From: a virus
Length of the DNA: 64,000 nucleotides
Reading direction: 5' to 3' (one strand)
Virus record (IMG/VR): IMGVR_UViG_3300031772_000009
Location: 1-64,000 of that record
The position numbers and the translations under genes were made by a program. This document shows, piece by piece, positions 4,697 to 62,838 of this stretch. Below the pieces are notes generated by a model. That model saw only the letters and a list, made by a program, of their open reading frames with translations. It searched no databases and was not told where the DNA came from. How positions within the stretch are numbered: position 1 is the stretch's first letter; each line of letters opens with the position of its first letter.

Positions 4697-4756
4697 ATTT
4701 TATAGAAAGATTTAAATATGAGATAAGTTATATATTTCATAGTTGGTGTATTAACC

Positions 4757-5287
4757 ATTAAAAAAATCTGTGTAAATTGTGGAAAGGAATATGATTGTGG
4801 AAGGAAAAGACAAAGAGGAGCGAGTGCTAAAACATGTTCTTTTCAATGTTTTCAAGAATGGCAAAAGAAATATAGGAAAAATTACTATGAAAAAAATAAA
4901 GAATTAATTCTAAAAAAACAGTTAGTATATATTCATAAAAAGAGACAAGAAAATCCAGAATGGTGGAAAGAATATCTTCTAAAATCAGCAATTAAATTGA
5001 AGATGTGGAACGAAAAACATCCAAATTATATTAATGAAAGAAATGCTAAAAGAAAAAAGGAACTAATTGATTTGCTTGGTGGAAAATGCCAAAAATGTGG
5101 ATATGATAAATGTACTGCGGCTTTAGATTTTCATCATGTAAATTCAAACGATAAAGAAAAAAAATACAAGGTAAAGAAATCAAGAGAATGGAGATTATAT
5201 AAAAAAGAAATAGAACAAAACATAAAAGAAGGAAAAGTTATTCTTTTATGTTCTAATTGTCATAGGGAGATACACCATGATAATTAA
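4757..5287 (+). CDS. HNH homing endonuclease (probable ATT start)
   Basis: LGGKCQKCG..LDFHH..LLCSNCH; frame is open from ATT 4757 and encodes an N-terminal CxxC..CSxxC finger; own TATA at ~4710. Confidence 0.85.
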   Translation: MKKICVNCGKEYDCGRKRQRGASAKTCSFQCFQEWQKKYRKNYYEKNKELILKKQLVYIHKKRQENPEWWKEYLLKSAIKLKMWNEKHPNYINERNAKRKKELIDLLGGKCQKCGYDKCTAALDFHHVNSNDKEKKYKVKKSREWRLYKKEIEQNIKEGKVILLCSNCHREIHHDN

Positions 5288-21592: not shown

Positions 21593-21817
21593 TTGATGGA
21601 AGGTAATATGACTCCGAAAGACAAAGAAAAGTTTGAGAGGATATGGAAGAAACTTGGCGAAAAAGAACTGAGCAATGACGATTTGAAACGGCTTGTCTAT
21701 TGGTTAATAATTGCATTGGGAGCAGAAGGTTGGTTTACTTTAGAATTAAAGGAAACGGCGAAACGTTTTGGAATCTTAGAATTACTTGAAGAAGGACTAA
21801 AATCTCCATCTGAATAA
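21593..21817 (+). CDS. hypothetical protein (C-terminus supplied by HNH cassette)
   Basis: tail duplicated at the end of the downstream HNH. Confidence 0.65.
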   Translation: MMEGNMTPKDKEKFERIWKKLGEKELSNDDLKRLVYWLIIALGAEGWFTLELKETAKRFGILELLEEGLKSPSE

Positions 21818-21856: not shown

Positions 21857-22414
21857 ATGTCTCAAGAAAATGAAAGATGTCATGAAAGACATAGAGAATA
21901 CTGTAGAAAATGGCGACAAACCCATAAAGAACAACTTAGAGAATATAACAAAAAATATAGAACCACTGAAAAATATAAGAAAAAACATAGAGAGTACTAT
22001 AAACATAATTCCAAAAAACATAATGAATATACTAAGAAATGGAGAGAACAAAACAAAGACCATGTTAAAGAATACACCAGAAAATACTATTTATTACATA
22101 AAAAAGAGAAGAATGTAGACCGCATGAATAGATTCCGAGAGTTAAAACAGAAATATGTTAACTTATTGGGTGGTAAATGTCAAATTTGCGGATATAATAA
22201 AGATAATGGAGCATTACACTTTCATCATTTAAATCCAGATGAGAAAGAAAGAACAAAGGAAGCTTTAAGAGTAGCTTTTGAGCCTAAAATAAGAAATGGA
22301 AGTATCCAGTTACTTTGTGCTAATTGTCATCAAGAAATACATGATGGATTCACGAATGAATTAAAGGAGACGGTTAAGAGACTAGGAATAGAAGACTGGT
22401 TCAAGAGAGAGTAG
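21857..22414 (+). CDS. HNH homing endonuclease
   Basis: LGGKCQICG..LHFHH..LLCANCH; basic helical repeats. Confidence 0.88.
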   Translation: MSQENERCHERHREYCRKWRQTHKEQLREYNKKYRTTEKYKKKHREYYKHNSKKHNEYTKKWREQNKDHVKEYTRKYYLLHKKEKNVDRMNRFRELKQKYVNLLGGKCQICGYNKDNGALHFHHLNPDEKERTKEALRVAFEPKIRNGSIQLLCANCHQEIHDGFTNELKETVKRLGIEDWFKRE

Positions 22415-26177: not shown

Positions 26178-26342
26178 ATGAAAATGAAAGTCGTTAAAGT
26201 CCAAATCACGAAGTTGAGTGGAGTTAAAGATGTGTGGGCAATCAAAATCATCGGAGAAGTTGAGGGAGTAATGATGCCTATGGAGTCTCTGGAAGCCTCG
26301 TTCTATTCAGAAACCGAACCTAAAGTGGAAGTGATAAAATGA
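26178..26342 (+). CDS. small protein (not in ORF track), C-terminus supplied by HNH cassette
   Basis: 54 aa ending EPKVEVIK; ATGA overlap with HNH. Confidence 0.55.
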   Translation: MKMKVVKVQITKLSGVKDVWAIKIIGEVEGVMMPMESLEASFYSETEPKVEVIK

Positions 26343-26740
26343 CTCATAGCAAAGAATATATGCGAAAATGGAGACATGAACATCCAAAACAATGTAAGGA
26401 ACATCAAAGAAAATGGAGAAAAGAACATCCAGAACAAATTCAAAAATACTATCGAGAACATAGAGAACACGAATTGGAACGAATGAAAAAATACCGTCAA
26501 GAATATAGGGAAAAGATTTTTGCTAAACTAGGGAATAAATGTGTTAAATGTGGATTCTCAGACCCCAGAGTCTTACAGATAGACCACGTTCACGGTCACG
26601 GAATAAAAGAATGTAGAGGAATAGGTTCTAACTCGACAAAATTCTATAAAAAGGTTCTTGCAGACACTAAAGGGAATTACCAGATTCTCTGTGCAAATTG
26701 TAATTGGATAAAGAGACATGAAAATAGAGAAGAGAGATAA
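26339..26740 (+). CDS. HNH homing endonuclease
   Basis: LGNKCVKCG..LQIDH..YQILCANCN. Confidence 0.88.
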   Translation: MTHSKEYMRKWRHEHPKQCKEHQRKWRKEHPEQIQKYYREHREHELERMKKYRQEYREKIFAKLGNKCVKCGFSDPRVLQIDHVHGHGIKECRGIGSNSTKFYKKVLADTKGNYQILCANCNWIKRHENREER

Positions 26741-27665: not shown

Positions 27666-28457
27666 ATGCTTACAGCCGAGATTTTACAAGAGATACTCGA
27701 TACTGGAATCGTTCTAGCTGGAGCTAAAAAGTGTGGAAAGAGTAATGCTTCTAAGGTTTTGGCTAGTGAAATAATAAAGGAACATCCAAACATTCAAGTC
27801 CGAATCTTTGACACTTGCCAAAATTGGGTTCACGGTTTCGAACCCGTCCTATGCCAAAAGATAAACGATGAGACAAGATATTTATACACTGGAAAAAGAA
27901 ACGTGTTGTACGACATTGAACTTATGGACATGGAAAAAATAATGGATGACATTGGAAAGATTGTTAGCCATGACTACAATGAACAGAGACTTTTGAAGAC
28001 GCAAAACAAGATGGACAGATGGATAGTCTACTTTATTGAGGAAGCCCAGAACGTTCTTGGAACTTATAGTTTGTCACGGGAGTCTGGAAAACTCTGGATA
28101 AAAATGATTAGTGAAGGACGCAATTTCAATATGGCATTTGTCTTCATAGGTCAACGTCTTGCAGACATATCTACAAAAGTAATAGAAAGAGCTAATGGCT
28201 ACCTATTTGGAAGAACATTTGGAGATAATGATAAGAAGAAGATAACTAGAATAGTTGGAGATGCAATAATGGATAAGGGTCTGGGAGACAATGAAGACTA
28301 TATAAAAATTACTGGAAATAAGATTGTTGAGGAAGTTTCTAAGCTGGAAACTGGAGAGTTTATCTACTTTAACGGTAAAGTTGGGAGACATATAAAATTT
28401 CCATGCTATACTTCTGACTCAACTCCAATACCATTATCAATAGAAACGCTTAAATAG
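27666..28457 (+). CDS. HerA/FtsK-like P-loop ATPase
   Basis: GAKKCGKS, IEEAQ, EGRN, QR. Confidence 0.8.
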   Translation: MLTAEILQEILDTGIVLAGAKKCGKSNASKVLASEIIKEHPNIQVRIFDTCQNWVHGFEPVLCQKINDETRYLYTGKRNVLYDIELMDMEKIMDDIGKIVSHDYNEQRLLKTQNKMDRWIVYFIEEAQNVLGTYSLSRESGKLWIKMISEGRNFNMAFVFIGQRLADISTKVIERANGYLFGRTFGDNDKKKITRIVGDAIMDKGLGDNEDYIKITGNKIVEEVSKLETGEFIYFNGKVGRHIKFPCYTSDSTPIPLSIETLK

Positions 28458-28491
28458 TAGAGTTACTATAATAATTATAGGTGAAATTAGT

Positions 28492-28983
28492 TTGGTATTG
28501 ACCGAAGAACAAAAAGAGAAGCAAAGGAAATATATGCGGGAATGGGCAAGAAAGGACAGAACCAAAAGTCCAGAGAAATATAGACAAGCAAGTAAGCGAT
28601 ATAGAGAAAAACTTGGAAAAGAAGAATATAATCGAAGACAAAGGGAATGGAACAAAAGAAACCCAGAAAAACAACTAGAACGTGATAGAAATTATAGAAA
28701 CAAACACAGACAAAAATATAATGAGGCAAGACTAAATCAAATAAAAAGAAAATGGATTGAAGTTATGACTATTCTGGGAGATGTTTGTAGTATTTGTAAA
28801 CATAAAGGCAAAAGAAGAGTATCTTGTCATGAAATTTATGGAAAACCTCATAAGGGGAATCCTTGGTACGTCCTTAAACATATTGAGAGGTTTATTCCTC
28901 TTTGTGATACATGTCATAAATCAGTTCACAGATACCATGAATATAAAAAGGAAATAGAAGAGTTAGAAAAGAAGATGATATAA
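28492..28983 (+). CDS. HNH-like endonuclease
   Basis: basic helical repeats; LG..CSIC..HE..PLCDTCH; GGTGA SD + TTG. Confidence 0.75.
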   Translation: MVLTEEQKEKQRKYMREWARKDRTKSPEKYRQASKRYREKLGKEEYNRRQREWNKRNPEKQLERDRNYRNKHRQKYNEARLNQIKRKWIEVMTILGDVCSICKHKGKRRVSCHEIYGKPHKGNPWYVLKHIERFIPLCDTCHKSVHRYHEYKKEIEELEKKMI

Positions 28984-28985
28984 CC

Positions 28986-29153
28986 ATGCCAAGATTAGAA
29001 TGTCCAGACTGTCTGGGAAAAGGATATGTGATAGTGAAAAGAATAAAACCACGTATTAGAGACGGAATATTTCAACGTGTAATATGTCCAAAGTGTAATG
29101 GGACTGGTTTGCTTCCTTCAGTATTTACGGGTGTAAAATTTGAAAGTCTGTAA
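28986..29153 (+). CDS. DnaJ-type zinc-finger microprotein (not in ORF track)
   Basis: CPDCLGKG ... CPKCNGTG. Confidence 0.65.
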   Translation: MPRLECPDCLGKGYVIVKRIKPRIRDGIFQRVICPKCNGTGLLPSVFTGVKFESL

Positions 29154-29239
29154 AGGACATGTTAAAAGTCTACGAAGGGGCATGACATACCAAATAGTTA
29201 ATAAGAAAGACTGTGAAATATGTAAGTTACTAGATAAAC

Positions 29240-29443
29240 ATGACTGGTGAAAATATGAATAGACTTTGGAGAATAAAGCATTGGTTCAAGTATGAACCTT
29301 CAATAGCTTTTGATTGGTTCATGGCTAAACTATTCCATATACTAGCTGAACTTACTGATAGAATAGGACGTTTAATATGTTGGCTTGGTAACTTGGATTG
29401 GGAGACTATTAAAAAAGAAGAGGAAGAAAAAGAAGATGAGTAA
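29240..29443 (+). CDS. hypothetical protein
   Basis: GGTGA SD. Confidence 0.5.
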   Translation: MTGENMNRLWRIKHWFKYEPSIAFDWFMAKLFHILAELTDRIGRLICWLGNLDWETIKKEEEEKEDE

Positions 29444-30773
29444 AGAACCAAATCCAGAAGAAAATGGAGAAGTAAAAAGAGGAAGTGTCTCAACAGTCTA
29501 TAACGAGAACATAGAGCATTTTGCTCAAACTTTACTGGAAGTTTTGGGCAAATTCAAAAGTCTGAGAGAACAACGTTACACGGAATTTTTTGCCACTGAT
29601 GATAAAGATATGAGTCGTATCTATATTGAATATCCACCATATCAACGTGCAGAAGCCATTTATGCCCATAACCGTTTCCTAGACGAACAAATAAAGTGTG
29701 GCAAAATTAAAGAGTCTGTAAGAATCGAAAATTATGATAGTGGCAAAGAAGTTTCTTCCTCATATGAGACAATACGGATTTCACGGGAAAAATACGAGAA
29801 CTTTTTGACTGAAGGATACCAATATTTCATTTGGGATGGCATAAGACTAACTCAAGAGATTTACTTTTCTGGAAGTAGCAGATATGTTCGTTTGTACTTT
29901 AGAAAAGCCGATACTGAAAAAGTAACAGAATTCATAACACAACTTCGCCTGTTCATGAAAAGCAATGCCTTGTTTAAAGGAGAAAAACTTCTGTTTACAC
30001 GTAGAGGTTGGGTGGAAATGCTGGAATATCCAAAGTTGGACTGGAATGATGTTATTCTGTCTCCACAAATAAAAAGAGAATTCGAACTCAACTTACTCAC
30101 TCCACTCAATGAAGGAGTAGACTGTATAGTAAAAGGCATTCCATGGAGAAGAGGACTATTGCTTGGTGGTTTGGCTGGAACTGGAAAAACGCAAGTTTGC
30201 AGAGTGCTTTGCAACCAATTAAAGGATGTGACGGTTCTTTGGGCGACACCTAAAGCCATTCAAGATGAAGATGATATAGCCATGCTTTTCGATGCGGCTA
30301 GACACTACTATCCAACACTGATAATAATTGAGGACATAGATTTTATAGGCGTAAGTAGAGATTTCTCTCAAGACCCAAGTTTAGGAGAACTACTTAGCCA
30401 ATTAGACGGTAACGACCCCAACTTTGGAATATTCGTTATTGCAACTACGAACAGACCAGAAATGCTTGACTCTGCTCTTGCAAACCGTCCAAGCCGTTTT
30501 GACGTTTTGATAGAGTTCAAACTTCCAGACAAAGAATCTTGCAAGAACTTGATAAAACTGTTCAGTAAAAACATGGTGTTTGACAAAGAATTAGATTTGG
30601 AAAACTTGGCATTGTCAATGAGAGATTTGACTGGAGCACAAATCAAGGAGTCATTCGTGTATGCTAGACTTGTAACAATATACAATAAAAAAGAGACGGT
30701 TGCAATTGAGGACGTTCTGAAGAGAGCGGAAAACTACAAATCAAAAAATGGTGCAGAGGCGTACAGAAAATAA
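29436..30773 (+). CDS. AAA+ ATPase (classic clade)
   Basis: RRGLLL.G..GTGKT, IEDID, ATTNRP..LD.AL.RP.RFD. Confidence 0.93.
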   Translation: MSKEPNPEENGEVKRGSVSTVYNENIEHFAQTLLEVLGKFKSLREQRYTEFFATDDKDMSRIYIEYPPYQRAEAIYAHNRFLDEQIKCGKIKESVRIENYDSGKEVSSSYETIRISREKYENFLTEGYQYFIWDGIRLTQEIYFSGSSRYVRLYFRKADTEKVTEFITQLRLFMKSNALFKGEKLLFTRRGWVEMLEYPKLDWNDVILSPQIKREFELNLLTPLNEGVDCIVKGIPWRRGLLLGGLAGTGKTQVCRVLCNQLKDVTVLWATPKAIQDEDDIAMLFDAARHYYPTLIIIEDIDFIGVSRDFSQDPSLGELLSQLDGNDPNFGIFVIATTNRPEMLDSALANRPSRFDVLIEFKLPDKESCKNLIKLFSKNMVFDKELDLENLALSMRDLTGAQIKESFVYARLVTIYNKKETVAIEDVLKRAENYKSKNGAEAYRK

Positions 30774-32071: not shown

Positions 32072-32593
32072 ATGGTGAACAAAATGAAGCGTATGACTTG
32101 CCAACATGGTATCTCACCTAAAAGTAAATGTAGAAAATGTCGTAGTGAATGGGAAAGAAAATATTCAAATAAAAGATATAATGATGACCAGATTTATAGA
32201 GAAAGAAGATTGGAACAAAATAGACGATATGGAATGGAACATAGAGATAAACAGAAAATGAGAAAGAAAAATTATTATGAACATAATAAAGAGAAACTTT
32301 TACAAAAAAGAAAAGAACGCTATATAAGAGAAAGATTAGAATTAATGAGAAAATGGAAAGAAACAAAGAAAAAATTAGTTGGTTTGCTTGGTGGAAAATG
32401 TCAACAATGTGGTTATAGTAAATGTTTCTCAGCTTTAGATTTTCACCATATCAATCCCGATGATAAAGAATGTAATGAAGAATGGGCTAGATATCCAGAA
32501 AAATTTATTCAAAAAATTAAGGATGGTAAGGTTCGATTGCTCTGCTCAAATTGCCATAGAGAAGTTCATCATCCAAATTATGGAGATAATTAA
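32072..32593 (+). CDS. HNH homing endonuclease
   Basis: LGGKCQQCG..LDFHH..LLCSNCH. Confidence 0.88.
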   Translation: MVNKMKRMTCQHGISPKSKCRKCRSEWERKYSNKRYNDDQIYRERRLEQNRRYGMEHRDKQKMRKKNYYEHNKEKLLQKRKERYIRERLELMRKWKETKKKLVGLLGGKCQQCGYSKCFSALDFHHINPDDKECNEEWARYPEKFIQKIKDGKVRLLCSNCHREVHHPNYGDN

Positions 32594-34619: not shown

Positions 34620-34835
34620 ATGGTGAAGATAGAGTTTAGACAGAAAAATCGTGATGGCACAGAAGCCATAGTGTACGACAACGAAGAGAACAAGTTGGAA
34701 GCCATAGTGTTTGTTGGTAAAGCACCGAGAATCAGCAAGATGTATGTTGTTCCTAAAGACAAGCTTAAAGAGGTTCTCCAGCAAATCTATGAATGTAAAT
34801 CAATACTTAAATATGAGGAGAAGCCGAAACCATGA
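34620..34835 (+). CDS. hypothetical protein
   Basis: operon. Confidence 0.55.
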   Translation: MVKIEFRQKNRDGTEAIVYDNEENKLEAIVFVGKAPRISKMYVVPKDKLKEVLQQIYECKSILKYEEKPKP

Positions 34836-35191
34836 AACCAATTACAGAAAAAGAACTACTTAAACTACTCCTAAAATGTTCACGTCACGATATGCATCCT
34901 AAAGTTTGCAAGGACTGTAATCAATCTCATCACCATGTTATTTGTATCTATGATTTGTTAATGAGTTTGGATGGTGGGTTTAAACTTAACGAGAAATTTC
35001 AACAAATGCTGGCGGAGACGAAACATCCAATGAAAATCCTTGAGACAGCAATGAAGAAGCATGATACTGTACTCAGAAGACTTGGCAACGGAAGCAGAAT
35101 CGTGAAGAAATGTAGGTATTGTGGTAGTGAAAACATATTAGTTTCTAAAGACCATGCAGACTACTGTATGGACTGTAGAAAGGTTCAGTAG
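34832..35191 (+). CDS. zinc-finger protein
   Basis: C-terminal CRYCGS..CMDC ribbon. Confidence 0.6.
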   Translation: MKPITEKELLKLLLKCSRHDMHPKVCKDCNQSHHHVICIYDLLMSLDGGFKLNEKFQQMLAETKHPMKILETAMKKHDTVLRRLGNGSRIVKKCRYCGSENILVSKDHADYCMDCRKVQ

Positions 35192-35405
35192 GTGATGGAA
35201 TAGATGCCACATTCAAGTAAGGGAATATTCAGTCTCAGAAATATCTGGAAAGCAATAAAGAAGTTGTTTAAACAATGAAAAAACTATATATATGTCCAGT
35301 TAGGGATAATTGTCCATATCATTATGATGCTTGCACAGACCCAACCAAATTCTGTAGAATAATAGAAGATACACCAGAACACTTCCAAAAGGAGATAAAC
35401 AAACA

Positions 35406-35705
35406 GTGACACCGTTAAAAAGATGTGAGGGTTTCGGAGTAAAATTTAGCGAGACAGACGAGATTTGCAAGCAATGTGATGATGCTATGGAGTGTATGCA
35501 AGAATTTCTGGACGAACAATTCAAAATTGGTAGTGGACAAAGATTTCCCGTTGAGACCGCATTGAAGGTTAGAGAGAAGCCGCCAATCAGTATAATGTTT
35601 CCGAAGGTTGGAGACGACAACATAAGTTTTTCCATCTATTTTAACAAGGAATGGCTGAAGAAACAACTCTTCGGAGACCGAGATAACGATAAGAAGGAAG
35701 GTTAA
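35406..35705 (+). CDS. Cys-rich hypothetical protein
   Basis: C..G.....C..C....C. Confidence 0.55.
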   Translation: MTPLKRCEGFGVKFSETDEICKQCDDAMECMQEFLDEQFKIGSGQRFPVETALKVREKPPISIMFPKVGDDNISFSIYFNKEWLKKQLFGDRDNDKKEG

Positions 35706-35890
35706 TGAAGATTAATCTGTGGATAGAACCAAAAGATGAGGAGCAATTCAGAGAAGACTTGAGAAAGTTCTTGAATGACCACGCTAAGAATTATGAAGAA
35801 ACAATAGTCATAGATGGTAAGGCTGTAGTTCAAGAAACAAACGAATATAGTAAAGCTTGGTACTATAAAATCGAGAAGGAAGAAAAATGA
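35705..35890 (+). CDS. hypothetical protein
   Basis: TAATG coupling. Confidence 0.55.
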   Translation: MKINLWIEPKDEEQFREDLRKFLNDHAKNYEETIVIDGKAVVQETNEYSKAWYYKIEKEEK

Positions 35891-36046
35891 AGTTTGTGAT
35901 TGGTAGAAAAAGTAAAAGTATCGAAAAGAGCATGGATATTATTGATGACTACCTATATGACGAACATGGAAACGCTAAAGACCGAGAGTTTTACTTTACC
36001 ATATTTCCTAGACCAGAAATAAATGATTACGCATTAAGCAAAAGGG

Positions 36047-36640
36047 TTGAAAGATAAAATGTCGAGAAAGAAAGAAATTCCATGGGAACGTTATTCTCAT
36101 ATACCAATCTTAGAGGGAAACAGAAGGTTGCAAAGACAATTGCTTGGTCTAAGATTACACTTCACGATTAAACATGACGGACAAAACGTTACTATTTGGC
36201 TGAGAAAAAAGAAATACTGCAAGAAGAAAACAGAGATAATAATTTCTAGTCACAACCAAGAAAACGCTTTCTCAGACATAGTGGCTTGTGTTCAAAAGAC
36301 AGAAGAATACCAGAAGATTCTTGAACTCATAGCAGACAATCCAACTTTCAGAGTGGTTGCTGAAGAATGTGCTAAAGGAGCAAGCATCACGGGAATAAGG
36401 CAATATTCAAAGGCAACGTTAATCGTAGTTGACATCTTTGACACGGCAATAATGAACTACTTATCCTATACTCAAGTCTATCAATTCTGTTATCATTATC
36501 ATATACCAATCGTTGAACTTTACGCTACGACAAGACACAGAACAATCAAGGACTTGATGAAGTTTTCACACCACGTTCTGGAATACTGTAATAAACCTAA
36601 ATGTCAATGTCTTGATTGTGGTAAAATATTTGAAAACTAA
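36047..36640 (+). CDS. RNA ligase (Rnl2/Rnl3-like), N-terminal part
   Basis: motif I KHDGQN, motif III AEE, IIIa VDIF; ends in CxxC half-ribbon. Confidence 0.75.
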   Translation: MKDKMSRKKEIPWERYSHIPILEGNRRLQRQLLGLRLHFTIKHDGQNVTIWLRKKKYCKKKTEIIISSHNQENAFSDIVACVQKTEEYQKILELIADNPTFRVVAEECAKGASITGIRQYSKATLIVVDIFDTAIMNYLSYTQVYQFCYHYHIPIVELYATTRHRTIKDLMKFSHHVLEYCNKPKCQCLDCGKIFEN

Positions 36641-36695
36641 CCAAAAGATTTAAATACATGGTTAATAATTATAATACTCAAAGAGATGATTAAAA

Positions 36696-37328
36696 ATGGG
36701 TTTGATATGCAATATATGCAATTTAGAAAAGTCACCCGAGGATTTTTATACTCTTTATAAATATGTAAAGAAAAATGGGGAAGAAAGTATTTATAAAAAT
36801 CTTGTTTGTAAAAAATGTATTCCACTCATTAGAAGAGAAAGATACTATAATGATGAAGTTTATAGAACAAAGCGTTTATTGGAAAATAAACTTTGTAAAG
36901 AGAAAAAACGAGAAGAATATTTAAAGAAGAGAAGAGAATGGAGAGCAAGAAATAGGGATAAGATAAACAAAAAATTGAGAGATTTTCACGCTCAACATAA
37001 AAAGGAAAAATCGGAATATTATTTAAGGAAATTAAAATATAGTAAAGAATATGCAAAATCACATAGAAGAGAAAAAAACGTTTGGCAACAAGATTATCAT
37101 GAGAAATTGAGAAGAGAACTCGTCCAAAAATTAGGTGGAAAATGTATTAGATGTGAAGAGAAAGATGTTGATGTATTAGAATTCGACCATATTGAGCCAA
37201 TATTACAGAGAGAACGTTCATTTTATGGAGTAAAACTTCATCCAGAATTATATCAGCTTCTTTGTGCTAATTGTCATTGTAAAAAAACAAGAGAAGATAT
37301 GAAGGTGATATTATGTCAAAAACAATAA
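36696..37328 (+). CDS. HNH homing endonuclease
   Basis: LGGKCIRC..LEFDH..QLLCANCH; own TATA at 36648. Confidence 0.88.
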   Translation: MGLICNICNLEKSPEDFYTLYKYVKKNGEESIYKNLVCKKCIPLIRRERYYNDEVYRTKRLLENKLCKEKKREEYLKKRREWRARNRDKINKKLRDFHAQHKKEKSEYYLRKLKYSKEYAKSHRREKNVWQQDYHEKLRRELVQKLGGKCIRCEEKDVDVLEFDHIEPILQRERSFYGVKLHPELYQLLCANCHCKKTREDMKVILCQKQ

Positions 37329-37684
37329 AGAAATGTCCTTATTGTGGTAGTAAAAATATCTTCGAATACGGCAAGGATGAGGGCATGGTGATAAAGGCGT
37401 TCAATAAGGACGGAGAATACATCATGGCGAAAATAAAGCTGGATTTGCCACGCCCAATAGTTGAAAGGGTTAGAGAAGGACCGCCGAAACTTCCAGTGAT
37501 TCCAGAGAGTGAGATTATGGGAGCGATAAGCCATGTGCAAGCAGACTTTGGACTCGATGGAACTCCGTCTCATGACATGCCACTTATTGCGAAAGCAATT
37601 GCAGAGGAATGTAGGAAACATTTCTATTCTAGCCGTGGAAATCTATTCACGTATTACCAAAAATATCTGGAGAATCGAAAATGA
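37313..37684 (+). CDS. RNA ligase, C-terminal part
   Basis: GGTGA SD; CPYC then motif IV EGMVIK and motif V AKIK. Confidence 0.75.
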   Translation: MSKTIKKCPYCGSKNIFEYGKDEGMVIKAFNKDGEYIMAKIKLDLPRPIVERVREGPPKLPVIPESEIMGAISHVQADFGLDGTPSHDMPLIAKAIAEECRKHFYSSRGNLFTYYQKYLENRK

Positions 37685-37908
37685 TTAAAGATGAAGAGAA
37701 GTTCCAAGTTGGTGATTATATAGGATTCAATATTTTCGGGACAGATTTAAGAGGAACTGGAGAAGTTCTTGGAAAGGCATTAGAAGGTATTTGTCCCATG
37801 TGGATAGTATTAATAGATGAGAGACCTACAGATACAATGCGAAAAATAAAAGAGAAAGCACTTATAATTCAAGAGAACTTTATGACATTAATGGAGCGTA
37901 AAAAGTAA
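37681..37908 (+). CDS. SH3/KOW-like hypothetical protein
   Basis: FQVGD.....G.G.V. Confidence 0.55.
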   Translation: MIKDEEKFQVGDYIGFNIFGTDLRGTGEVLGKALEGICPMWIVLIDERPTDTMRKIKEKALIIQENFMTLMERKK

Positions 37909-38367
37909 ATGGAACTTGATAACATTAAAGTGAGTGCAACCGTGATAGTCATATCTAAAGACAATAAGGCTCTTATAGTGCAGAGACCACCAGACAAAGC
38001 ATTTCCGAATCTGTGGACGGTTGCGGGTGGCAAGATTCAAGACACTGATGGAATATTGGAAAGTGAGGGGTTTCGTTATTATTCAGTAGAAGAATGTGCA
38101 AGTCGTGAACTTTGGGAAGAAACTGGAATTACTGTTGAACTTGAGAAACTGAAATATCTTTGCTCAATTACTACGATATGGGGAAAGACAAGGCGTATTA
38201 TCTTAAGTTTCTATATTGTTCTGAACGTGAATGCTAAAGATATAGACATAAGATTAACTGAATGTCAAGCTTACAGATGGATACAAGAACATGAAATTCC
38301 ACAATATGGATTCATTCCAGACATCGGTGGAGAAATCAGAGAAGTCTTCAAACGAATTAAGAAGTGA
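37909..38367 (+). CDS. NUDIX hydrolase
   Basis: GG...EECASRELWEETG. Confidence 0.92.
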   Translation: MELDNIKVSATVIVISKDNKALIVQRPPDKAFPNLWTVAGGKIQDTDGILESEGFRYYSVEECASRELWEETGITVELEKLKYLCSITTIWGKTRRIILSFYIVLNVNAKDIDIRLTECQAYRWIQEHEIPQYGFIPDIGGEIREVFKRIKK

Positions 38368-38377
38368 GACAAAAAAG

Positions 38378-39004
38378 ATGAGTAAAACTATTATAGTTCT
38401 GATTATTCTAGCAATAATTATAGTGGGTTTCATTGGGTGGCAACTGTCTTTGCCTTTCAACACTCAAACATTTCACTACAAGCAGTTATACAACGAGATG
38501 AGTAAACCAGAATATCTTCAAAGTCTCAGAGAATTCTGTAAGAATGAACTTGGCGATTCTATTGACGGCTTGAACTATTCTCAGCTAGTAACTTGGGAAC
38601 GCAAATATCTAACGTACACACGAAATGAATTCACCAGACGAGAAATGCCAATTGACATTCTAAACTCCTACATTACTGATGGAGTGGCTTTCGGTAGGTG
38701 TGGAGAGTTTGCTTTGCTCTATACGGGACTGTGCCTTGCTAATAACATTCCAGTTAGATTAATATTAGACGAATCAAGTTGGACAAACAAGAGCAAGACT
38801 GGCGGTGCTGGAGACCACGTTTGGAATCAGATATATGAGAATGACAGATGGATTACGGTAGACCCCACCGAGCAACGGTTCGATGACCCAAAAATGTATG
38901 TCCGAGACTGGAATAAGGAAGTCAATAACGTGGTAGCCGTCTGGAAGGATGCTTCTGGAAACATGGCTACTGAAGACGTTACGAAAGTCTACTGTGAGAA
39001 ATAG
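38378..39004 (+). CDS. membrane-anchored transglutaminase-like (PNGase-like) protein
   Basis: N-terminal TM; GRCGEF, DHVW, W..VDP Cys-His-Asp triad. Confidence 0.8.
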   Translation: MSKTIIVLIILAIIIVGFIGWQLSLPFNTQTFHYKQLYNEMSKPEYLQSLREFCKNELGDSIDGLNYSQLVTWERKYLTYTRNEFTRREMPIDILNSYITDGVAFGRCGEFALLYTGLCLANNIPVRLILDESSWTNKSKTGGAGDHVWNQIYENDRWITVDPTEQRFDDPKMYVRDWNKEVNNVVAVWKDASGNMATEDVTKVYCEK

Positions 39005-40308: not shown

Positions 40309-40737
40309 ATGACAACAGAACAACGAAAAGAACAAATGAGAAAATATAATCGAGTATATCATCAAGAACATAAAGAACAACTTAAAGAATACCGTAAACA
40401 ATGGTATAAAAACCATCCAGAATACTTTAGAGAATATAACAAGAAATGGCATAAAGAACATCCAGAACAATCTAAAGAATCTAAAAGAAAATATATTCGT
40501 AAACTTCACGATAGAGTTATTGATTTTCTTGGTGGAAAGTGTGTAAGTTGTGGAATAACCGATAAACGAGTATTACAAGTAAACCATATCAATAATGATG
40601 GAACAGAGGAAATCAAAAAGATTGGTACAAGACCATTTTATTTTGCTATTCTCCAGAATAAAAGACCGATTAATGATTTAGATGTTAGATGTGCCAATTG
40701 TAATATTCTCTATAGATGGAAAGATAAGAAAAGATAA
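40309..40737 (+). CDS. HNH homing endonuclease
   Basis: LGGKCVSCG..LQVNH..CANCN. Confidence 0.85.
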   Translation: MTTEQRKEQMRKYNRVYHQEHKEQLKEYRKQWYKNHPEYFREYNKKWHKEHPEQSKESKRKYIRKLHDRVIDFLGGKCVSCGITDKRVLQVNHINNDGTEEIKKIGTRPFYFAILQNKRPINDLDVRCANCNILYRWKDKKR

Positions 40738-48342: not shown

Positions 48343-48729
48343 ATGTTTGACAGAAAAACCTATCAGAGAAAATGGAGACAAGAACATCCAAAACAAAAGA
48401 GAGAATATGATAGAAAATACCGTGAAAGACATATAGGACTATATCAAAAACATAAAGAGAAAATCAAATTCGAAAGGCAAAATATGAGACGTAAAGTTTT
48501 TGAACATTTAGGAAATAAATGTGTTTCTTGTGGTGAATCTGATTTTAGATGTCTACAGATAGACCACGTTCACGGACACGGAGTTAAAGAGATTAGAAAA
48601 CTATGCGGAAACAGTAAAGCCTATTACGACAAAATTCTTAACGATACTAACGGAAACTATCAATTGCTCTGTGCAAATTGTAATTGGAAAAAACGATACG
48701 ATAATAAGGAATATTCGAAATATCCTTAA
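48343..48729 (+). CDS. HNH homing endonuclease (close paralog of 26339)
   Basis: LGNKCVSCG..LQIDHVHGHG..YQLLCANCNW. Confidence 0.88.
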   Translation: MFDRKTYQRKWRQEHPKQKREYDRKYRERHIGLYQKHKEKIKFERQNMRRKVFEHLGNKCVSCGESDFRCLQIDHVHGHGVKEIRKLCGNSKAYYDKILNDTNGNYQLLCANCNWKKRYDNKEYSKYP

Positions 48730-62343: not shown

Positions 62344-62838
62344 TTAAAGGGTCTTTCTCTTTTTTTCGATGTATTTATGTAAATACATATGACAAGAACC
62401 ACAAAGAGTTATTGTCTCTTCTGGATAATATCGAACATGATGAAGTAATAAAGTGACTATGTTTTCTTCCCTCTCTTTTCCACAAACCTCACATTTATTA
62501 CCTATTTTCATATTACGAATATTTATTCTGGATTGTTGTCTTTTAGCTATTTCCATAATTAGATTTCTTCTCTCATCTGGAAGTTCATTAAATAATGGCT
62601 TGTCTTTTATTATGCATTTTGGGTCTTTTGGCGGTCTTCCCTTTTTAGTATTCTGTGGAAATTTTCTCATTCGTTCCTTCATTTTTTCATATTGAGACGG
62701 ATTGTTTTTCCAATAATCAATCATGTATTTTTTCATATATTTTTTAGTGGCTTGTCTATAACAATTGCTTGAACAATATTTTTGATTTGGATAGGATGTT
62801 TCGAATAGATTTCCACAAACTAAACATGTTTTTCTCAT
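62344..62838 (-). CDS. HNH endonuclease with N-terminal zinc finger
   Basis: CLVCG..YCS..C; CEVCG..LHH.Y..LC..CH. Confidence 0.8.
   Translation of the reverse strand: MRKTCLVCGNLFETSYPNQKYCSSNCYRQATKKYMKKYMIDYWKNNPSQYEKMKERMRKFPQNTKKGRPPKDPKCIIKDKPLFNELPDERRNLIMEIAKRQQSRINIRNMKIGNKCEVCGKEREENIVTLLLHHVRYYPEETITLCGSCHMYLHKYIEKKRKTL

Follow-up and report, generated by a model that had tools for sequence, protein, structure and literature searches.

An RNA ligase gene of a virus is cut in two by a selfish HNH endonuclease gene within the window, by which we mean the whole 64,000-nucleotide (nt) stretch of DNA analyzed here, and the inserted cassette carries a CxxC zinc-knuckle-like peptide for each of the two protein ends that it creates. 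The window is taken from IMG/VR virus record IMGVR_UViG_3300031772_000009, of which it is the first 64 kb; this record is 91,361 bp long, has terminal repeats and derives from freshwater-sediment metagenomes, and the virus is probably archaeal. With respect to how the ligase tolerates its interruption, we consider it rather probable that the two halves form a zinc-stapled heterodimer, which would be a metal-based variant of the assembly tails of the Aeh1 ribonucleotide reductase and of the split-intein fractured genes. The locus is made up of the following features.

36059 to 36601, plus strand: body of the N-terminal half (N-half) of the ligase, with motifs I (KHDGQN), III (AEEC) and IIIa (VVDIFD).
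36602 to 37363, plus strand: the mobile cassette in full (762 nt, 254 codons), lying between a Lys codon and a Glu codon.
36602 to 36640, plus strand: C-terminal tail CQCLDCGKIFEN of 12 codons, bearing a CxDC knuckle, with its TAA stop; absent from unsplit homologues and from contigs with an empty site, and inside the 100% identical block described below.
36641 to 36695, plus strand: 55-nt spacer, containing CAAAAGATTTAAATA at 36642-36656, a promoter-like block (resembling a B recognition element (BRE) and TATA box) that precedes the HNH gene.
36696 to 37328, plus strand: free-standing HNH endonuclease gene encoding 210 residues in a different frame from the N-half, matching PF01844 (E 1e-5) and PHROG HNH families.
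37313 to 37363, plus strand: N-terminal head MSKTIKKCPYCGSKNIF of 17 codons, bearing a CPxC knuckle, with its own ATG inside the 3' end of the HNH gene.
37364 to 37684, plus strand: body of the C-terminal half (C-half) of the ligase, with motif IV (EGMVIK), motif V (AKIKLD) and a C-terminal helical domain.

Three open reading frames (ORFs), all co-oriented, fill the interval 36047-37684. The N-half ORF (36047-36640) is open from a TTG at 36047, which gives 197 residues, while the ATG at 36059 gives 193; the ATG is the likely start because homologues begin MK.KE.PWE.Y at the matching point. The C-half ORF (37313-37684, 123 residues) shares its frame with the N-half and starts inside the end of the HNH gene, the overlap being 16 nt. 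The N-half matched the RNA_ligase profile PF09414 over positions 5-137 of 171 with 32.4 bits (Pfam cut-off 27), an annotation which is also present on the unsplit homologues. As the initial annotation had proposed from the letters alone, alignment to these homologues placed motifs I, III and IIIa on the N-half (36047-36640) and motifs IV and V on the C-half (37313-37684), with all catalytic motif residues retained across the two halves. In the 132-sequence family alignment the invariant columns were K, G, E and EG. The N-half reading frame meets 24 stops across the insert, so that no read-through of this frame is to be expected.

A search of 1.8 billion representatives returned 200 family members, and sequences were examined for approximately 180 of them. 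No match was found by tblastn of both halves against GenBank phages, no relatives by IMG/VR scans with the ligase or with its distant unsplit relative P0104, no family matching the ligase in PHROGs, and nothing meaningful, nor any match to a solved structure, by PDB sequence search with the family profile. Across 185,579 species genomes the sole match was a whole gene, 40% identical, at L030 1665-2588 (QMRG01000124.1, a metagenome-assembled genome (MAG) of a Thermoprotei archaeon), which weakly supports an archaeal host range for the virus group. Several family members (P0001-P0005, P0017, P0021, P0024 and P0030) were also observed to carry an extra N-terminal extension of 60-100 residues (MRKPKKIPEGFEWD...RCNNPKLKKL...), a variable accessory domain of the family which is absent from the window ligase.

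The cassette is ordered as tail, stop, 55-nt spacer, HNH gene, start and head, and its GC content is 27% as against 36% and 44% in the flanks. The N-half polypeptide ends in ...KCQCLDCGKIFEN, followed by the stop, and the C-half polypeptide begins with MSKTIKKCPYCGSKNI; tail (12 residues) and head (17 residues) together amount to 29 residues. Additional cysteines are present in the window tail (EYC...CQCLDC). The head gave only generic zinc-ribbon matches in Pfam, all below threshold (E 0.05-0.15), and the earlier description of the ribbon as HypA-like in particular found no specific support. The HNH protein has an N-terminal CxxC...CxxC finger and a C-terminal DH...N...H core with CxxC/CxxC. 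Both expression signals pointed out in the initial annotation are present in the sequence, namely a GGTGA 4-5 nt upstream of the C-half ATG and the TATA-like TTTAAATA approximately 40 nt upstream of the HNH ATG. The spacer block CAAAAGATTTAAATA fits a BRE/TATA-like promoter carried by the element. Counts of TTTAWATA in the genome were not above expectation (20 versus 16), nor was the count of a 14-mer motif above shuffles, and because motif counts are not raised the promoter reading derives solely from the conservation of the spacer block between cassettes. One-mismatch copies of CAAAAGATTTAAATA were observed at 4705, 19840 and 56709, with similar motifs of the window all lying on the plus (coding) strand, and the block may be a promoter motif of the virus.

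Comparison with uninterrupted alleles established both the boundaries of the insert and the origin of the knuckles. Whole homologues (286-395 residues, 55-81% identical) read ...HVLEYCNTEK(D/E)YGKDEGMV... with nothing inserted. Inspection of the unsplit homologues for the ribbon found it absent from approximately 150 of them, with P0104 as the single unsplit exception among the approximately 180 members; in all other whole proteins the loop at the window insertion point (site 1) is short, as is the hairpin that separates motif IV from motif V. A sediment contig with an empty site matches 36122-36593, continues with the 8-nt sequence CTCCAAAA and resumes at 37364, reading EYCN-TPK-EYGKDEG, while in a second empty-site contig position 36588 is joined to 37364 through the 13-nt sequence CAACACTGAGAAG, reading EYCNTEKEY. 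These contigs define the insert as exactly 36602-37363. The HNH gene had been thought to have landed between the knuckles of a ribbon belonging to the ligase itself; this did not hold for this locus, since unsplit homologues and near-identical empty alleles are free of the ribbon and the knuckles lie inside the 762-bp block.

The cassette also moves as one unit. No differences were found between the window and a second locus, L026, over 36584-37377, whereas the ligase body is 97.3% identical upstream and 84.7% identical downstream; synonymous and non-synonymous substitutions numbered 12 and 2 in the N-half and 27 and 9 in the C-half. An identical cassette in diverged flanks indicates a recent transfer of the whole, a pattern characteristic of recent homing in which the co-conversion tracts were very short. 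The 762-bp block which is 100% identical in the window and L026 contains both knuckles, and together with the ribbon-free empty alleles this identifies the ribbon halves as cargo of the cassette; to judge from these alignments, the ribbon clearly arrived with the HNH gene in the window lineage. A maximum-likelihood tree built on the N-terminal body placed the split forms here and there among whole forms, beside near-identical ones. The window type was sister to the whole P0015, and P0024, which is split at a second site (site 2), grouped with the whole P0002 and P0020 with 100/100 support. Filled and empty alleles coexist in nature.

This second insertion site was found in locus L027, where the ligase is broken 16-17 codons further downstream, after motif IV. 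The L027 N-half ends in ...EEGMVCKTDPEEKNKCLDCQYEW (tail ...KNKCLDCQYEW, then stop), its HNH protein has 187 residues and is 34-38% identical to that of the window, and the start of its C-half overlaps the HNH gene and reads MTSKNIGKKDECKCPKCGSYNIIKFSERIMAKAKLD (head MTSKNIGKKDECKCPKCGSYNI). The L027 spacer is also 55 nt long and has the exact 15-mer CAAAAGATTTAAATA in common with the window spacer, an agreement reached in 0/5000 shuffles. The hexamer GAATAC (Glu-Tyr) stands immediately 3' of both insertion points, at 37364 and at 37415, and its presence at both suggests that the cassette could have shifted between sites by misaligned repair.

Homologous tails and heads recurred in further members of the family. 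Among N-halves, P0047 (site 1) ends in ...YECLDCGKTW, while P0017, P0021, P0024, P0030 and P0032 (site 2) end in ...HRC(K/R)DCGKEW and P0049 (site 2) in ...KKCRCKDCGNEW, each followed by the stop; a homologous tail is also present in P0037. C-halves with homologous heads are P0006 and P0012 at site 1 and P0010, P0011, P0013, P0120 and P0126 at site 2. Beyond the window, L026 and L027 are the loci in which tail and head were paired with DNA. The CxDC end of the N-half and the CPxC start of the C-half, both recognized at the outset, were borne out and recur in 9 tails and 9 heads: C-x-D-C is kept in 9/9 tails and C-P-x-C-x-S-x-N in 9/9 heads, and the remaining positions drift. Cysteines that are invariant while other positions vary point to selection on the peptides and not on DNA signals, and the recurrence of this 2+2 cysteine arrangement exceeds chance. 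A scan of the whole genome and of all loci for the tail and head motifs returned only the ligase loci and an intact ribbon at 35102-35191, and an IMG/VR scan with the HNH alignment returned 7 distant HNH loci, 0 of which were flanked by knuckle tails.

The one unsplit protein with a ribbon, the distant family member P0104, shows the two knuckles fused in cis. Its tail-like and head-like knuckles lie within the hairpin between motifs IV and V (...EEYKCLSCLYIGKKTPCERCGSEKV...), and its segment ...KCLSCLYIGKKTPCERCGSEKV... aligns first with the L027 tail (KCLDCQY) and then with the L027 head (NIGKK..CPKCGS), an order shared with the split genes, and the IGKK stretch is common to P0104 and the L027 head. 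An AlphaFold2 model of P0104 built with 132 sequences had a predicted local distance difference test (pLDDT) score of 94; the ribbon was modelled as short beta-hairpins (pLDDT 81-84) that stand out from the tip of the IV-V hairpin, and the core matched NgrRnl, T4 Rnl2 and archaeal Rnl3 (6vt4/5cou, 2hvr and 2vug; Foldseek E 1e-8). Closer to the split gene, the ORF at 34832-35191 ends in the intact zinc ribbon at 35102-35191, KKCRYCGSENILVSKDHADYCMDCRKVQ followed by the stop (KKCRYCGSENI...CMDCRK), the first knuckle of which is identical to the C-half head at 27/33 nt. The split ribbon may be related to, or derived from, this neighboring one.

P0104 may represent either an ancestral state which was invaded by an HNH gene or the scar left by HNH deletion from a split gene. 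On the first of these histories, the HNH gene would have inserted between the knuckles of an ancestral P0104-like ribbon, and its flanks would later have been co-converted into ribbon-less alleles and into the second site. The order of the knuckles in P0104, which equals that of the L027 tail and head, agrees with such an origin, as does the fact that homing normally co-converts flanks. However, the ribbon is missing from the other members (P0136, P0147 and P0169) of the distant subfamily in which P0104 falls, P0104 would serve equally well as a healed scar after HNH loss, and in the lineage of the window the ribbon clearly came with the HNH gene. Since the rest of the subfamily is without the ribbon, we slightly favor the scar, and we regard an ancestral ribbon, as the remote source of the cassette, as possible but doubtful. 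That alternative is about history, and would be compatible with a zinc-staple mechanism.

The mechanism we propose is as follows. A 762-bp homing cassette has entered, in frame, a surface loop of the ATP-dependent RNA ligase of the virus; this loop follows the helix that ends ...HVLEYCNKPK and precedes the motif IV strand. The cassette terminates the upstream part, restarts the downstream part and gives each new terminus one knuckle. The two halves would be translated separately, and one Zn2+ would then be bound by four cysteines, two from each chain, so that a zinc ribbon is rebuilt across the break and motifs I-IIIa and IV-V are held together as one active site. Such a ribbon would link the N-half, at its C-terminus, with the N-terminus of the C-half, points which were covalently joined before the insertion, and would be the non-covalent, metal-mediated counterpart of a split intein, allowing an endonuclease gene to reside inside a useful gene at low cost. 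An intermolecular site is proposed because one CxxC per chain cannot complete a tetrahedral site, and a Cys4 bridge is the simplest reading because the knuckles are always paired, one on each side of the break. The geometry of the staple is plausible in light of the cis fusion in P0104, the model of that protein and the intact ribbon nearby. A shared Cys4 site, as put forward in the initial annotation, would on this comparative evidence, with the knuckles conserved as peptides, be the best explanation of why the split is tolerated.

Several considerations weigh against the zinc staple. An AlphaFold2 model of both halves as one chain (P0039) had a mean pLDDT of 49 and approximately 50 at the junction; P0039 is an in-frame read-through in which the 24 stops were entered as Gly and which includes a 224-residue junk linker, and is uninformative at the junction. 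The Aeh1 tails are not needed for the a/b heterodimer itself but for higher-order assembly, so that tails can be important in other ways. The extra cysteines of the window tail could form other arrangements, tails may pair with tails or heads with heads, and splicing is excluded only through its lack of sequence features, a look for RNA runs that contain the locus having returned none.

There is a different account of the rescue, in which the halves would reassemble via the large interface of the ligase itself and the knuckles would be passengers or have another role (stabilization of each new terminus, nucleic-acid binding and homotypic pairs were considered), zinc bridging not being what rescues the enzyme. 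Many split enzymes do reassemble in this way, the dispensability of the Aeh1 NrdA tails for the heterodimer and the additional cysteines of the window tail agree with it, and the loop at site 1, which connects a long helix with the motif IV strand, accepts inserts of approximately 80 residues without cysteines in P0099 and P0118, which suggests a robust fold there. Nevertheless, the 2+2 cysteines are invariant in 18/18 tails and heads despite divergence, always with one knuckle on each side, a lone CxxC is not a stable domain, and the cis-fused version in P0104 was modelled as one compact module. We therefore judge reassembly through the ligase interface alone to be unlikely.

It is more improbable still that the split killed the ligase and that both ORFs are decaying remnants. 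The insertion does look recent in the window lineage, but both ORFs are intact with every catalytic motif, the split design has been kept by at least 9 diverged lineages, tails and heads intact, and the differences between the window and L026 are mostly synonymous, though much of that divergence may predate the insertion.

Removal of the insert at the RNA or protein level, by a group I, group II or archaeal bulge-helix-bulge intron, an intein or ribosomal bypass, which would restore a contiguous ligase, is in keeping with the frequent residence of HNH genes in group I introns and inteins and with an insert length that is an exact multiple of 3, but we give it hardly any credence: a permissive Rfam scan of 35000-39000 gave no match at E<=1, the unambiguous boundaries (...AAA/UGUCA...UUC/GAA) fit neither group I nor group II rules, cofolding of the junctions (-21.8 versus -22.4 +/- 3.2 kcal/mol in shuffles) indicated no bulge-helix-bulge, only approximately 145 nt lie outside the HNH ORF, the 12- and 17-residue tails compare with >100 residues for a Hint domain and contain no Hint blocks or intein Pfam match, the head ends in ...NIF with Glu as the +1 residue and so lacks intein splice-junction residues, the frame is crossed by the 24 stops, and conservation of tails and heads at the peptide level is not expected of intron sequence. 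Separate translation without splicing, as suggested in the initial annotation, accordingly has comparative support from the absence of an Rfam match, the unfitting junctions, the lack of junction pairing and tails too short for an intein.

Among the closest known systems is the split NrdA of phage Aeh1, whose nrdA-a / mobE / nrdA-b arrangement Friedrich et al. reportedly described in 2007 as 'genes in pieces'. There, as in the window, a free-standing HNH-family gene divides the gene of an enzyme into two that are co-oriented, with neither RNA nor protein splicing, and AT-rich C- and N-terminal tails which are absent from unsplit homologues arrived with the element. In contrast to the window, the Aeh1 tails are oppositely charged, have no recognizable motif, involve no metal and occur at one locus, whereas the window tails are, by sequence, the two knuckles of a putative Cys4 ribbon, portable with the HNH gene and found at two sites and in many lineages. 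The tails acquired with mobE are essential for the activity of the split NrdA but not for the primary a/b heterodimer, being needed for higher-order assembly (Crona et al. 2011, PMC3045599), and the same authors predicted element-borne tails as a general way to neutralize fragmentation (PMC3045599).

Fractured genes, in which a split intein is combined with a homing endonuclease gene that is free-standing, have spacers of 27-51 nt and are known mainly from metagenomic viruses (Dassa et al. 2009, PMC2677866). They have the same layout as the window locus, that is, the host gene's N-terminal part with an element peptide, a short spacer, an endonuclease gene with its own control elements, and an overlapping start with a second element peptide and the host gene's C-terminal part. 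However, the peptides of fractured genes are intein halves which trans-splice to a covalent, scar-free protein, whereas those of the window amount to 29 residues without intein blocks and would leave the two chains permanently in a non-covalent complex bridged by metal. With two Cys per chain and one Zn2+, the Rad50 zinc hook and the CD4/CD8-Lck zinc clasp achieve very tight association through very short peptides (PMC5093744, PMC12198760); these join intact proteins for dimerization or signaling, are not products of mobile elements and do not restore a broken enzyme, so that the likeness is in mechanism only.

The ShiLan-type HNH insert in actinophage methylases is likewise an HNH element in a coding region that is neither intron nor intein; it is actively homing, and zinc fingers occur only inside its HNH protein (PMC11855218). 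The host frame is translated across that insert and meets no stops, whereas the window frame has 24 stops and the gene is truly split. With respect to the ligase, the PF09414 nucleotidyltransferase motifs I, III, IIIa, IV and V and the modelled fold of P0104 are as in NgrRnl/Rnl5, T4 Rnl2 and archaeal Rnl3. Unlike these, the viral and archaeal-MAG family has a C-terminal helical domain of its own, and it is the only member of the group seen here to be split. In agreement with the initial annotation, which knew of no zinc-clasp junction, our literature search found no paper in which a homing-endonuclease cassette carries a split zinc ribbon.

The surroundings of the ligase gene contain further polymorphisms and further HNH-type genes. 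In sediment relatives the segment 35282-35456, with a small Cys-rich ORF at 35275-35409, is exchanged for approximately 35 nt, and one sediment contig is without 37685-37910, a 75-residue ORF between the ligase and a NUDIX gene; both are additional presence/absence polymorphisms flanking the ligase. At least 10 further HNH-type ORFs were observed in the 91-kb genome, an unusually heavy load of homing-type genes, among them the following.

4997-5287: HNH-type ORF in the window.
21857-22414: HNH-type ORF in the window.
26339-26740: HNH-type ORF in the window.
28492-28983: HNH-type ORF in the window.
32072-32593: HNH-type ORF in the window.
40309-40737: HNH-type ORF in the window.
48343-48729: HNH-type ORF in the window.
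62344-62838, minus strand: HNH-type ORF in the window.
87487-87936: HNH-type ORF elsewhere in the genome.

The HNH ORF at 21857-22414 ends in ...FTNELKETVKRLGIEDWFKRE, echoing the end of the upstream ORF 21593-21817 (...FTLELKETAKRFGILELLEEG). This insert may carry a diverged copy of the displaced gene end, which would be another route by which damage is limited. A P-loop ORF resembling the terminase large subunit (27666-28457; PHROG 2666, E 5e-6) is followed by the HNH ORF 28492-28983, a 55-residue protein with four CxxC motifs (28986-29153) and an ATPase-like ORF (29385-30773). An HNH cassette equipped with a Cys-rich adaptor may have interrupted another gene in the interval 27666-30773.

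The survival of homing endonuclease genes within essential or useful genes is put down mainly to shelter inside self-splicing introns or inteins. Aeh1 NrdA represented a third way, that of assembly tails, and was until now a single example with featureless tails; the locus described here offers a recognizable, portable and apparently widespread version. We put forward tentatively, as a proposal with somewhat less than even prospects, that the zinc-staple cassette is a distinct class of self-neutralizing mobile element which enters different positions and possibly different genes. It would be able to enter varied sites because it brings its own stop, promoter and start together with a split metal-binding module which re-joins the cut protein. 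A cassette that loses its HNH gene could leave behind a new zinc-ribbon insert in the protein, of which P0104 would be a case. Such a class would give homing endonuclease genes a third solution, next to self-splicing introns and inteins. If the zinc staple is real, it would explain how such elements colonize coding regions at low cost, would suggest how proteins can come by small zinc-ribbon inserts, and would provide a 29-residue natural tag pair for the metal-dependent reassembly of split proteins.

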